From the NCBI GenBank assembly GCA_964106645.2, contig OZ067042.1: DNA of 64,000 nt. The stretch is one strand, 5' to 3'. The translations under genes were made by a program, and so were the position numbers. This DNA is from Podarcis pityusensis (lineage: Eukaryota). The notes beneath the pieces were generated by a model that was not told the DNA's origin, ran no database searches, and saw nothing but the letters and a program-made list of their open reading frames with translations. Within the stretch, counting starts at the first letter, position 1. Each line of letters opens with the position of its first letter. This document shows positions 2,059 to 18,074 of the stretch, piece after piece.

Positions 2059-2741
2059 TGTGCTGGTCCCGGGGGTAAGGTACCTTGGGTGTAGCAGAGT
2101 CCACACGAAGAGGGGCAAGGTCCGAGGCAGAGAGCCGGGCGGGGAACAGGAACGCTGGAACAGGAGGCTGTGCAGGGAACAGGAACACCGGATGGTCGGG
2201 AACAGGAGGCCGAGCAGGGAACAGGAGTACCGGATAGTCAGGAACAGGAAGCCGAGCAGGGAACAGGAGTACCGGATAGTCAGGAACAGGAGGCCGAGCA
2301 GGGATCAGGAACACAGGAAGGTCCGAAGCCAACAACGACGTTGCTCCCGCAACCTGGGGCCGGGCTGACTGGGCTTTTATCCTCTTCTAGGGCCAGGGGC
2401 GGTCCCGGTCCCCAGGAGCCCCGCCTCCTCTGGCCTTAAGGCGAGCACTCCTCCTGGGGGCAACCAGTTCCCTTCGCCTCTCTGCCCTAAGCCTCTGCAG
2501 ATCAGGAGAGGCCGAAGGGTTACTGGGCCCTGGAGGAGGCTCACCTGTGGCCACTGAGTCGTCAAGCCCCTCTGGGGCCAGAAGGGCTTCACCTGGGGCC
2601 AGCTCCTGATGCACTGCCACAGGTGCAGGCTCTTCAGCATCTAGGCCTTGCCCCAGTTCAGCCGGCCCTGGAGGCGGGGACTCCTGTGCAGGCTGGGATT
2701 CCTCTGTTTCATCCTCCGAATCGGAATCCCAGGCCATCACA
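2059..2741 (-). repeat. 3' LTR (683 bp)
   Basis: Direct repeat of 7131-7813; no difference seen by eye and the ORF-track translations across both copies are identical. Confidence 0.97.
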
Positions 2742-4451
2742 CCATCCCCCCTCCCAGGCCCCCCCCTCAACCGAGGGTCCGGACCCGGCTTGCCGGGGTA
2801 CGTCGCGTGGAACTCTCGGAGGCAGGCAGGTGCGTGGACATTGGCCGCTGGTTCCCAGGAACGGTCCTCCGGTCCGTACCCCTTCCAGTCAATGAGATAC
2901 TGCAGCTTTCCCCTGCGGTATCGGGAGTCCAGGATGCGTTCCACCTCGTACTCAGGCTCTCCCCGAACCAACACTGGCTGCGGTCGGGGACGGTTCGGGT
3001 GGAACTCGTCGGGTGGGGCCACCGGACTCAAAAGGGACCTGTGGAAGACCGGGTGAACCTTCAGGGTTGCGGGTAACCGGAGACGGAATGCCACAGGAGA
3101 GATTTGGTCTACGATAGGGAACGGGCCGGTGAAGCGGGCGTCCAACTTCCGCGAAGGTCGAGAGGGGTGGAGGTGGCGAGTGGAGAGCCAAACCAGGTCA
3201 CCGACGCGAAGTTCCGGCCCCACCTGGCGGTGGCGGTCGGCCTGGGCTTTGTACGCTTCCTTGGCCTGGTGCAGTTGCTCCACCAAAAGCTGTTGCTGGG
3301 ACTGGAGCTCTTGAAGCCACTCCGTCACCGCCGGGACCGCGGATGCCGGCAGCACCTCTGGAAACAGCCGTGGATGATAACCATAACTGGCCTGGAACGG
3401 GGTCTGCTGGGTGGACGCATTCACCGCGTTGTTATAGGCGAACTCCGCCAATGCCAGGTGGTCGACCCAGTCATCCTGCTGGTAGCTGCAGTAACACCGG
3501 AGGTACTGCTCCAGCACCGCGTTCGCCCGTTCCGTCTGGCCATCGGTCTGTGGGTGGTAGGCTGACGAGAGGCAGACCTCTGTCCCGAGGGTCTGGTGTA
3601 ATGCTCGCCAGAACCGGGATGTGAACTGAACGCCCCGGTCGGACACCACGCGCTCAGGTAGTCCATGCAGGCGGAAGACATGCTGAAGGTACAGCTGAGC
3701 AGTTTCCTTGGCTGTGGGTACAGATGGACAGGGAGCGCAGTGCACCATCTTGGTGAAATGGTCGGAGAAAACCAGAAGGCAGGTACAGCCACGAGACGAG
3801 GGTAAGTCCACTACAAAGTCCAACGAAACTGTGTGCCAAGGGCGCGGTGGAACTGGCAATGGCTGAAGTAGGCCGGGGGGTCGCCCGGTAGGTCCCTTGG
3901 CGCGCCGGCAGACATCACAACCAGCAACGTAGCGAGCCACGTCAGCCTTCAGGCGGGGCCACCAAAACTCACGACTGACCAGATGGGTGGTCCGATACCG
4001 TCCAAAGTGCCCTGCTGCTGGGGCATCATGGGCCATCCGGAGAACCTCCAGCCGCAGTGGCCCTGGCGGGATGTACAGACGACCGTGGTGCAGCAGGAGG
4101 CCCTGATGCAGGACCAGCCCCGGATACTGTGGGCTGGACCCTTCAGCCAGCTCCCGGAGTCGTTCCTGGGCCCAAGCGTCGACCCGCTGCTGTTCCCGCA
4201 CCCGAACCTGCAGTGGCTGCGCCTCCTGGGTGGCCAGGAATGCAGCCGGAGGTAGGATCGTGGTGGGTTCTGCTTGCTGTACCGTGTCTGTGTTGTCTTC
4301 AGGTTTCCGGGACAGGGCATCCGCCTTCTGATTCTGAGAGCTAGGGATGTAGCGGATCCGGAACTGGAACCGGGAAAAGAACAACGCCCACCGGATCTGT
4401 CTTTGGTTCAGCTTGCGGGTGGTCTGGAGGTACTCCAGGTTCCGGTGGTCA
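2387..4451 (-). CDS. pol: Pol part 2 (RNase H end, integrase HHCC/DDE/GPF, chromodomain, LTR-encoded tail), separated from part 1 by an 8-bp duplication frameshift
   Basis: HDAPAAGH..CDVC, SLDFV, VSDRG, GQTERAN, GPF, EYEVERILDSR..YLIDWKGY..SWEP; stop codon inside the 3' LTR. Confidence 0.92.
2742..2755 (-). other. Polypurine tract
   Basis: GGGAGGGGGGATGG on the minus strand abutting the 3' LTR. Confidence 0.9.
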
Positions 4452-6192
4452 GGTGGTCAGTTCTCACCTCCACCGGATGTCGTGCCCCCTCAAGATGGTG
4501 GCGCCAGACCTCAAAGGCTACCTTGATGGCCAGTAGTTCCCGCTCCCACACAGTATAGTTACGCTCCGCTGGTAGGAGCTGGCGAGAATAGAAGGCACAG
4601 GGTAAGAGTGGCGCTTCAGGACCAATCTGTTGAGACAAGACGGCACCGAGAGCCGTACTGGAAGCGTCGGTCTCCACCACAAAGGGTCGAGAGGGGTCAG
4701 GATGTTGTAAGATTGGTGCCCTCTGGAAACAGGCCTTCAACCCCTGAAACGCCTCCTCTGCCTCCTTGTCCCAGGAAAACGGCGTCTTTGGGCGCAGTAG
4801 CCGGGTCAACGGGGTGGTGCGATGAGCATAATCAGCGATGAAGGTCCGGTAGTAATTGGCGAACCCCAGGAAACGCTGCAGGTCCTTGCGGTTCCGGGGT
4901 GCCGCCCATTCTTGAACCGCTGTCACCTTCCCCGGGTCCATTTGCACCCCATCTGGAGAGAGCCGGTGACCAAGGAAGTCCACAGTCCGCTGATGGAACT
5001 CGCACTTGCTGAGCTTTGCGTACAAACGGTGCTCACGCAAGCGCTGCAGCACGGTCCGGACATGTCCCTCATGGCAAGCCGGGTCACGGGAGTAAATCAG
5101 TATGTCATCCAAATACACCACCACGTACTTGTCTAACAAGTCCTGAAACACGTGGTTGATGTAGCGTTGGAACACAGCAGGCGCGTTGCACAAACCGAAA
5201 GGCATAACCAAATATTCGAACTGCCCGTACCGGGTCCCAAACGCTGTCTTCCACTCATCCCCGGCTCGGATCCGAATCAAGTTGTAGGCCCCCCGGAGGT
5301 CCAGCTTGGTGAACACCTGTGCCCCTTGCACCCGCTCCAGCAGCTCCGAGATAAGGGGCAAGGGGTATCGGTCTGGGACGGTAATTTTGTTCAGGGCCCG
5401 GTAATCATGGCAAGGGCGGAGTTCCCCACATTTCTTCTTAACGAAAAGCACTGGTGCCGCGGTAGGCGAGGTGGAAGGCCTAATGAACCCACGCTCCAGG
5501 TTCTTGCGCAAGAAGTCCTGCAAAGCCTCGCGCTCTGGCTCTGTTAGGGAATATAAGCGACTCACTGGTAAAGGCGCTCCGGGTTGGAGGTCTATGCCGC
5601 AGTCAAAAGGCCGATGCGGCGGCAGCTGGTCTGCCCCCCGTTCCTCGAACACGTCCTGGTAGTCCTGGTACACGGCTGGGAGCGTGGGTGCTGCCTCCTC
5701 TGAGGGCGCGGCCGCCAGCGTTCCAGATTGAGCATGGGAACATGGGTCTGGGAAGTGCACGGTCCGTTTGACCCAGTCAATCTGAACGTTGTGGGCTTCC
5801 AGCCAGTCCATCCCGAGCACCAGGGGGAAGCGGGGCATAGAGGCAATGTCCAAAGTTCGCAACTCCCGGTGCTGCTGGAGACACAGGACCAGGGGCTGGG
5901 TCTCCTGAGTAACGGCACCTGAACGCAGAAGTCGTCCGTCAATCGCTTCCACCTGGACCGGTACTGGCTTGTTCCGAAGTGGCACCTGATGATGGGCGGC
6001 AAAAGCAGCGTCCATATAGGAGCGGGTTGCCCCTGAATCTACCAAAGCATGGGTGAGGATCCAGGGCCCACCTGGAGGGTATAAACGTACCGAAACCATA
6101 AGATGTTGCAAGTCCATTGGTGCGGGCCCATTCTGTACGGTTTGGGACCCCCGGTAGCTAGGGCCATCAGCTACTGGGGTTGGCGGTTTCCC
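4452..6192 (-). CDS. pol: Pol part 1 (protease, reverse transcriptase, RNase H N-terminal part), reached by -1 frameshift from gag
   Basis: ALVDSGAT, LDLRGAY, MPFGLCNAP, YLDD, ETDASS; the -1 frame is open from GGGAAAC (6192-6186) into ORF 6117..4408. Confidence 0.92.
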
Positions 6193-7067
6193 TGCAGCTG
6201 GCGTTTCTCAGGGCAGGACAGAGCGAAGTGTCCACTTCCGCCACAGTAAAGACAGAGATTTCCCTCCCGACGCCGCGCCTTCTCTGCGGGGGAAAGGCGT
6301 GGCCGCACTGCCCCGAGCTGCATAGGCTCCTCCGTTAAATCAGTTGTGACCGTGGGGCTGCCGGAAAAAGCTGGTGCCGTGAACTGGAAGTGTCGGCGAC
6401 CCCGGGCCTGACGACGATCCTCCAACCGGTCGTCTATTTGTAGACTCCGTTGAATGAGAGTGTCCAGCGTGGTGGGGCGTTCCATTGTGGCCAACTGGTC
6501 CAGTACCTCGTCCGAAAGCCCTTCGAGATACTGGTCCCGCAGTGCCGAGTCATTCCAGGTCAAGTCCTGTGCCAACAGCCGAAACTCCGTGGTATATGTG
6601 GCCACCGTGGACTTGCCCTGTTTCAAACGCCGAATCGCCCGGTTGGCTTGACTCTCTTTCTGGGGGTTGCCGAACGCGGCCTCCAAACGATTGCAAAACC
6701 CCGTATAGTCTGCCAGCAAGGGGGAGTCTTGCCTGAGTAGCGGCAACGCCCACTTGGCCGCCTGGTCCTTTAACAAACTAATCAAAAAGTGCACCTTGGT
6801 GCGGTCGTCAGGAAAGTTCCGGGCTCGCCCCTGAATATACAGCTTGGCCTGGGCCAGGAACATGGGAAAGCTGGCCGGGGCTCCATCAAATTTCTCAGGC
6901 AAAGCCACTGGGTACTTGCCAGGAGCCGGGGCGTCGGCCCCAGGAGCCGGTAGGGCTTCCAAGCGTTGCTGAAGTGCCACAACCGCGTCGCTGAGCTGCT
7001 GCACGGTGTGAGTCAAGGCCTGGTTCTCCTGGGCCAAAGCCACCAGTGCAGCCGCCTGTTCAGCCAT
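6171..7067 (-). CDS. gag: Gag (298 aa): coiled coil, retrotransposon capsid domain, CCHC zinc knuckle
   Basis: LPEKFDG, LKQGKSTVATYTTEF (MHR-like), EEPMQLG, CLYCGGSGHFALSC; PEG10/RTL-like architecture. Confidence 0.95.
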   Translation of the reverse strand: MAEQAAALVALAQENQALTHTVQQLSDAVVALQQRLEALPAPGADAPAPGKYPVALPEKFDGAPASFPMFLAQAKLYIQGRARNFPDDRTKVHFLISLLKDQAAKWALPLLRQDSPLLADYTGFCNRLEAAFGNPQKESQANRAIRRLKQGKSTVATYTTEFRLLAQDLTWNDSALRDQYLEGLSDEVLDQLATMERPTTLDTLIQRSLQIDDRLEDRRQARGRRHFQFTAPAFSGSPTVTTDLTEEPMQLGAVRPRLSPAEKARRREGNLCLYCGGSGHFALSCPEKRQLQGNRQPQ

Positions 7068-7118
7068 GGCCTCTGGCTCTTCCCGAACGCACCCCTACGA
7101 AGGGGAAGTGCGGGTGTG

Positions 7119-7128
7119 GCGGGAGCAA
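7119..7128 (-). other. Self-priming primer-binding site (non-tRNA PBS)
   Basis: TTGCTCCCGC 2 nt after the 5' LTR; no TGG tRNA complement; perfectly complementary to LTR positions 7422-7413. Confidence 0.8.
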
Positions 7129-7130
7129 AC

Positions 7131-7813
7131 TGTGCTGGTCCCGGGGGTAAGGTACCTTGGGTGTAGCAGAGTCCACACGAAGAGGGGCAAGGTCCGAGGC
7201 AGAGAGCCGGGCGGGGAACAGGAACGCTGGAACAGGAGGCTGTGCAGGGAACAGGAACACCGGATGGTCGGGAACAGGAGGCCGAGCAGGGAACAGGAGT
7301 ACCGGATAGTCAGGAACAGGAAGCCGAGCAGGGAACAGGAGTACCGGATAGTCAGGAACAGGAGGCCGAGCAGGGATCAGGAACACAGGAAGGTCCGAAG
7401 CCAACAACGACGTTGCTCCCGCAACCTGGGGCCGGGCTGACTGGGCTTTTATCCTCTTCTAGGGCCAGGGGCGGTCCCGGTCCCCAGGAGCCCCGCCTCC
7501 TCTGGCCTTAAGGCGAGCACTCCTCCTGGGGGCAACCAGTTCCCTTCGCCTCTCTGCCCTAAGCCTCTGCAGATCAGGAGAGGCCGAAGGGTTACTGGGC
7601 CCTGGAGGAGGCTCACCTGTGGCCACTGAGTCGTCAAGCCCCTCTGGGGCCAGAAGGGCTTCACCTGGGGCCAGCTCCTGATGCACTGCCACAGGTGCAG
7701 GCTCTTCAGCATCTAGGCCTTGCCCCAGTTCAGCCGGCCCTGGAGGCGGGGACTCCTGTGCAGGCTGGGATTCCTCTGTTTCATCCTCCGAATCGGAATC
7801 CCAGGCCATCACA
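7131..7813 (-). repeat. 5' LTR (683 bp) with a TATA-like GATAAAAG at 7453-7446
   Basis: Direct repeat of 2059-2741, immediately upstream of the PBS and gag. Confidence 0.97.
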
Positions 7814-7899
7814 CATGGTCAGAAACTATACGCTTCTGAATACCAGCAGCTGGAAACCTTAGGAGGGGAGAGGGCTGTTGCGTTCAGGTCCTGCTTGGC

Positions 7900-11159: not shown

Positions 11160-11313
11160 CCAAGGAGTGTGGTGGAGTCTCCTTCTTTGGAGGTCTTTAA
11201 GCAGAGGCTTGACAACCATATGTCAGGAGTGCTCTGATGGTGTTTCCTGCTTGGCAGGGGGTTGGACTCGATGGCCCTTGTGGTCTCTTCCAACTCTATG
11301 ATTCTATGATTCT
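11160..11313 (+). mobile_element. CR1 LINE 3' end
   Basis: VVESPSLEVFKQRLDNHMSG ORF2 end and a TTCCAACTCTATGATTCTATGATTCT octamer tail. Confidence 0.9.
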
Positions 11314-16137: not shown

Positions 16138-16207
16138 GATTCCTGCATTGCAAGGGGTTGGACTAGATGACCCTTAGGGGTCCCTTCCAACTCCACAATT
16201 CTATGAT
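16138..16207 (+). mobile_element. CR1-type 3' tail (SINE or LINE remnant)
   Basis: ATTCCTGCATTGCAAGGGGTTGGACTAGATGACCC...TTCCAACTCCACAATTCTATGAT. Confidence 0.75.
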
Positions 16208-17811: not shown

Positions 17812-18074
17812 AACAATAGCTCAACTGGTTAGAACGTGGTGCTGATAACACCCAAGGTTGCAGGTTTGATCCAAGGTGGGTTGGACTAGAACAGGCATAG
17901 GCAAACTCGGCACTGAGATGTTTTGGGACTACAACTCCCACCATCCCTAACTAACAGGACCAGTGGTCGGGGATGATGGGAATTATAGTCTCAAAACATC
18001 TGGAGGGCTGAGTTTGCCTATGCCTGGACTAGAAGATCCTCAGGGTCCCTTCCAACTCTACAATTATTCTATAA
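17812..18074 (+). mobile_element. tRNA-Ile-head / CR1-tail SINE split by a hAT MITE
   Basis: TAGCTCAACTGGTTAGA..GGTGCTGATAAC..GGTTTGATCC head; the CR1 tail resumes after 18026. Confidence 0.75.
17892..18026. mobile_element. hAT (Charlie-like) MITE
   Basis: TIRs CAGGCATAGGCAAACTC/GAGTTTGCCTATGCCTG; 8-bp TSD GACTAGAA at 17884-17891 and 18027-18034. Confidence 0.9.

Follow-up and report, generated by a model that had tools for sequence, protein, structure and literature searches.

On the minus strand of the window (the whole 64,000-nucleotide stretch of lizard DNA analyzed here), positions 2059 to 7813 are a young chromodomain Ty3/gypsy retrotransposon. Its two 683-bp LTRs, the 5' LTR at 7131-7813 and the 3' LTR at 2059-2741, run from TG to CA and are 100% identical, and the junction sequence contains a 5-bp target-site duplication, CCATG, with its left copy at 7814-7818 and its right copy at 2054-2058. 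Gag (6171-7067) is assigned from Pfam matches covering DUF4939, Retrotrans_gag, the Ty3 capsid, and a CCHC knuckle, and its overlap with pol contains a GGGAAAC heptamer (6186-6192) that is probably a -1 frameshift site. Pol is divided between a first frame (4408-6207) with protease (PR), reverse transcriptase (RT), and most of RNase H (RH) and a second frame (2387-4456) with integrase (IN), an SH3 domain, and a chromodomain, which continues into the 3' LTR; Chromo (E = 4e-15) and SH3_Tf2-1 are among the Pfam matches, and a polypurine tract lies at 2742-2768. The gag-PR-RT-RH-IN order, the C-terminal chromodomain, and the TG...CA LTRs together are the layout of Tf1/sushi elements (chromoviruses).

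About 115 codons of the integrase frame lie inside the 3' LTR (2387-2741), with a tail that is first acidic and then basic; an overlap of pol with the LTR is also described for a pufferfish V-clade element (PMC11117352). The R-U5 region (7230-7400) carries pyrimidine-rich tandem repeats of about 42 nt each. Elsewhere in the window, short repeats at 11244-11303, 16140-16200, and 17878-18065 resemble the 3' tails of reptile LINEs or SINEs.

The preliminary description had called the element recently active. For its family, here family A, this is borne out by the identical LTRs, by near-identical copies (the 30 best DNA matches, selected for likeness, have 0 to 4 differences from the window LTR over 683 sites), and by 256 pattern matches in the genome to the junction between LTR and primer-binding site (PBS). 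It does not extend to the window copy as a source of protein, as pol changes frame within RNase H and integrase was therefore probably supplied by other copies. The RT-RNase H region is 99 to 100% identical to Podarcis muralis UniRef entries named "Gypsy retrotransposon integrase-like protein 1" (P0048), which place the same family in a named lacertid lizard and whose annotation is domain-only and silent on priming; identity to other reptile, amphibian, and fish elements is 60 to 69%, which points to a lacertid-like host. Distant Gag queries returned the same clade in the loci examined, a PF19259 profile search at E = 1e-9 gave no matches, viral contigs held no relatives of the element, and metagenome contigs gave two fragment matches. 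One candidate for a distant family, L121, was rejected as an internally deleted copy of family A. The gag-pol layout differs between family A subfamilies at about 96% RT identity (L236 and L240 versus L244, L239, and L252), some having one open frame of about 1560 codons (1623-codon frames were also found) and others the -1 overlap; the mode of expression has switched within one young clade.

A primer-binding site complementary to its own LTR

As the preliminary description stated, the PBS of this element lacks TGG and is the exact complement of a stretch of the LTR: TTGCTCCCGC (7128-7119) and GCGGGAGCAA (7422-7413), both read on the minus strand, are reverse complements over 10 nt, and the PBS region has no longer complement in the 683-nt LTR. 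The PBS begins 2 nt past the terminal CA of the LTR, behind a GT spacer (7129-7130) that is probably the overhang trimmed by integrase. The LTR 10-mer, which is the predicted self-primer and presumably nucleotides 1 to 10 of the RNA, has its copy in the 3' LTR at 2341-2350. It starts at 7422, 31 nt downstream of the first base of a TATA-like box, GATAAAAG (7453-7446). The window LTR shows no hexamer resembling a poly(A) signal other than this putative promoter box, which in family A might serve both as promoter and in 3' end formation. A non-tRNA PBS that starts 0 to 5 nt after the LTR and complements at least 10 nt of the element's own 5' LTR is the mark of self-complementarity used in PMC6317226, and it is the arrangement present here.

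Complements of this length do arise by chance, and 49 of the 4370 overlapping internal 18-mers have at least 10 nt of complement somewhere in the LTR. In the 26-nt interval where the transcript start would be expected, the count falls to 3/4370, and these three are, by position, the 18-mers that hold the PBS itself; the background is thus near 1% for the LTR as a whole and near zero at the expected start.

As there is no TGG in the PBS, a match to a tRNA 3' end is not possible. When the exact 10-mer was sought upstream of a T-loop motif, five matches came up (four in the reversed control), and none of the five lies in a tRNA gene. These results bear on an alternative that we regard as very improbable, in which the two 10-mers pair for structural reasons, to close the 5' leader in packaging or translation, while a host RNA, for example a tRNA fragment, does the priming. 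Some room is left to it by the scope of the search, which covered exact 10-mer matches near a T-loop motif only; the matches themselves, all outside tRNA genes, speak against it.

Compensating changes between and within families

Other gypsy families in the same genome were obtained by Pfam searches. The 100 regions fetched yielded RT in 92, an LTR pair in 71, and clean TG...CA ends with a 5-bp target-site duplication in 51. A 10- to 11-nt complement to the element's own LTR is present in 36 of 40 clean chromodomain elements (offset +2 in 35 and +3 in one), and the remaining four, L242 and L247 among them, lack the full complement through single substitutions. TGG is found at the PBS of none of the 40. 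The non-chromodomain gypsy controls, in contrast, have TGG in 11/11 and the complement in 0/11, their longest match being 6 nt.

The complement is kept with different letters. Seven primer letter pairs occur in families at 51 to 92% RT identity, the primers being GCGGGAGCAA in A, ACTGACGGATT in B, ACTGTCGGAAT in B2, GTCGAAGCAA in C, AGTTAGAGCAA in C2, AGATGGAGCTT in D, and CAGAAGGTAT in E, with C and C2 represented by one element each. Each primer matches its own PBS in full and the PBS of other letter pairs at only 2 to 9 positions. Set against the 1% background in the window LTR, the contrast of 36/40 with 0/11, the fixed offset, and the different letters, together with the family D comparison below, effectively exclude a chance complement. 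For a structural pairing combined with a host RNA primer, seven PBS sequences and the co-changes between individual copies would require as many host RNAs.

Several further regularities accompany the primer. The first spacer base (7130 in the window) is G in 40/40 chromodomain elements, and the LTR base right after the primer (7412 in the window) is C in 35/36 elements; these two could add one pair past a bulge of one base, at the presumed cleavage site. An A/T-rich box near -30 is clear in families A, B, and D, weak in E, and missing in C/C2. An AATAAA-like signal in R-U5 occurs at +66 to +75 in C, D, and E, and none is seen in A and B (7131-7422 in the window).

Within family A, both 10-mers are kept in subfamilies with Gag identity down to 68%, and while the R-U5 distance between them ranges from 165 to 360 nt, the primer and the LTR end are fixed. 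The pair is intact in 103 of 111 distinct insertions gathered by protein searches, the others having single breaks or being unreadable, and the breaks in old copies are single and mostly at CpG. Copies picked for a C>T change in the PBS have the matching primer in only 2/10 cases, as expected from CpG decay after insertion. We rejected covariation within family A, as most of its variation consists of single CpG changes in older copies, and also the double changes in L046 and L153, which can be independent CpG decay; family A alone therefore demonstrates conservation and not covariation. The LTR and PBS are also covered by contigs from four runs of related organisms; in the 40 rows examined out of 80, neither 10-mer shows a difference, a comparison that we set aside as evidence.

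Covariation within a young family is provided by the sister family D, which has 1431 pattern matches in the genome. The statistics given here come from 70 of these, all on contig C1 (one non-family match was skipped among the first 71 listed). Primer and PBS agree in 68/70 copies, and the two discordant copies have private changes. Two variant primer types, with eight copies each, have the compensating PBS in 16/16, and neither type is a CpG-decay change. On a tree built without the primer and PBS sites, the primer changes seven times and the PBS seven times, counts that are rough because the tree is star-like and that overstate independent events because copies share descent. The covariation in relatives that the preliminary description named as a check is thus present both across families and within one young family. 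As to genomic distribution, copies of family D cluster toward contig ends and those of family B cluster on contig C19, which suggests different insertion or retention biases.

The same copies help to weigh a further alternative, which we consider unlikely, namely that priming uses the element's own sequence but in trans, from short capped transcripts or from primers cut from another RNA (a second copy or solo LTRs). Most of the genomic evidence is equally compatible with priming in cis or in trans. Cross-pairing between the family D types, with G:U tolerated, should nevertheless leave some copies with a PBS of another type than the LTR, and this is seen in 0/70, an argument that is weak if the variants are rarely coexpressed.

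Bases behind the primer-binding site and a proposed priming cycle

Directly behind the PBS, at 7118-7117, stand a C and then a variable base, which may be a cap-copied C and an untemplated base. A C directly follows the complement in 34 of the 36 elements that have one, in 111/111 family A insertions, and in 35/35 family B/B2 copies; in the junction listing for family A, this C is missing in 1 of 100 rows listed. The second base behind the PBS is A in 94, T in 11, and C in 6 of the 111 family A insertions. Over the 5 nt behind the PBS, 13 of 88 near-identical family A copies vary versus 1.2 expected, in four of five clusters (Poisson, 6e-10, a value that ignores shared descent).

Family D has a comparable hot spot. 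From PBS position 11, 28 copies read T then C, 37 read C then C, and 5 have other bases; the T is complementary to the first base of the primer, an A that does not vary. Copies that are identical across 340 flanking bases can still differ here. On the tree, position 11 changes 22 times and position 13 changes 16 times, whereas none of the 1594 other columns changes more than 8 times. The tRNA-type control family, which is small, has one difference in 10 copies over the 8 nt behind its PBS. In this non-chromodomain family (L330-L347), the TGG-type PBS itself comes in two versions that differ at two sites, in 4 and 6 of 10 copies, and two tRNA primers are possibly in use.

Reverse transcriptases can add a C opposite the RNA cap. 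The C and the hot spot behind the PBS would fit a PBS that is copied anew from a capped RNA primer beginning at 7422, and on this reading the first base of the RNA would be G7422 and family D would have two adjacent starts. A structural role for the pairing, in contrast, does not predict a C and a hot spot at this place. Tf1 cDNA is described as retaining the copied PBS and gaining nontemplated bases (PMC11042837), which fits the hot spot in the lizard elements.

RNA data were drawn from four 2026 RNA runs, with 39 to 174 raw reads on both strands. Read starts and ends show no pile-up in these runs, depth is continuous across 7422, and it is nearly nil inside the element. The reads neither place the start at 7422 nor put it elsewhere, which leaves a little room for a structural pairing with a host RNA primer. 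Both the contigs and the RNA reads contain far more LTR sequence, from solo and other copies, than internal sequence, and this would suit primers supplied in trans, as would the minimum-energy fold of the predicted 5' leader of the window copy, in which the primer:PBS helix is not formed (z = 0.61). The helix is formed in 9/18 folds of subfamily representatives, as read from dot-brackets.

Taken together, the segment at 7119-7813 is the 5' LTR and PBS of a young chromodomain Ty3/gypsy element that very probably uses the 10 leading nucleotides of its own transcript as primer for reverse transcription, in the manner of Tf1. The preliminary description had proposed a recently active, self-priming retrotransposon of an amniote, and its self-priming part is supported by the conserved complement, the co-change of letters, and the hot spot after the PBS.

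A priming cycle for such an element can be hypothesized as follows. Transcription would start at G7422, and nucleotides 1 to 10 of the RNA would pair with the PBS. By analogy with Tf1, the element's RNase H may then cut behind the primer and leave a 3' OH. The plus strand could later copy the primer up to its capped end, adding a C opposite the cap and some untemplated bases, with the outcome that the PBS and the bases behind it would be rewritten in part of the progeny. Both LTRs would regain the primer sequence from the copy of R at the 3' end.

From this cycle a broader proposal follows, which on balance we favor: lizard sushi-type elements may keep a record of their own priming, the PBS being recopied in each cycle from the capped self-primer, so that primer mutations are written into it and a cap-derived C with untemplated bases marks the first nucleotide of the transcript. 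If this is true, genome copies would suffice to map where transcripts of self-primed elements start, and there would be direct evidence that an amniote element primes without a tRNA. The literature searched, in which the primary papers of 1997 to 2006 fell outside the scope, contained no such direct evidence, no squamate case of self-priming, and no cap footprint behind a PBS. It could also be speculated that self-priming elements would escape control exerted via tRNAs or tRNA fragments.

Comparison with known and proposed self-priming elements

In a 49-row FastTree of the RT core, which held no row named as Tf1 or sushi-ichi, the window element and its sister families share a clade (support 0.92) with chromoviruses of fungi and vertebrates, from which the plant chromoviruses are separate. 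This branch is described as self-priming (10.1101/2022.12.06.519325). For Tf1 of Schizosaccharomyces pombe, it is known from experiment that RNase H cuts off the leading 11 nt of the transcript and that these serve as the primer (PMC7175516, PMC5341516). PMC6317226 describes self-priming for yeast and for vertebrates, and PMC4600332 has it implicated "from fungi to vertebrates", the vertebrate proposal being credited in these accounts and in 10.1101/2022.12.06.519325 to Butler et al. 2001; PMC2864245 also describes some relatives without the signature.

Like Tf1/Tf2, the lizard element is a chromodomain Ty3/gypsy element whose PBS complements 10 to 11 nt of its own LTR (10 nt in family A and 11 in some sister families) and which has no tRNA site. 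It differs in the 2-nt G-N spacer after the LTR, as the PBS of Tf1 appears, from the account in PMC11042837, to abut the LTR, and in a Gag with a CCHC knuckle and a gag/pol overlap in the -1 frame, which are unlike Tf1 as described in 10.1101/2022.12.06.519325. For Tf1, cleavage of the primer by RNase H is established, whereas for the lizard element it is presumed by analogy.

The likeness to the vertebrate Tf1/sushi group (sushi-ichi of Takifugu; the Fungi/Vertebrates cluster of GyDB, or "V-clade") extends to domain order, the chromodomain, the -1 gag/pol overlap, and the 5.5-kb size, and in the RT tree the lizard element falls with elements from fish, amphibians, and reptiles. Sushi LTRs are described in PMC3601003 and fish V-clade elements in PMC11117352; AATAAA in R-U5, typical of Sushi LTRs according to PMC3601003, is absent in family A and present in C, D, and E. 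Self-priming with a three-duplex "pretzel" is described as a common feature of the Tf1/sushi group (10.1101/2022.12.06.519325). The central duplex of this fold, primer:PBS, is present by sequence in the lizard elements. The flanking stems, undetected in family A, are no better than shuffles in 10/11 representatives under a crude test without pseudoknot folding, and in family D the flanking duplexes beat shuffles, with 11 and 3 of 200 shuffles as good. Tf1/sushi elements also represent a lineage related to mammalian PEG10/RTL1 (PMC4340606).

The self-priming mechanism itself is thus already known, proven for Tf1 and proposed for vertebrate Tf1/sushi elements. What is added here is a natural compensatory series and a footprint behind the PBS, which are unusually good genomic evidence, and, with multiple young families present at high copy number in a single lizard genome, vertebrate self-priming moves from resemblance toward a testable mechanism.
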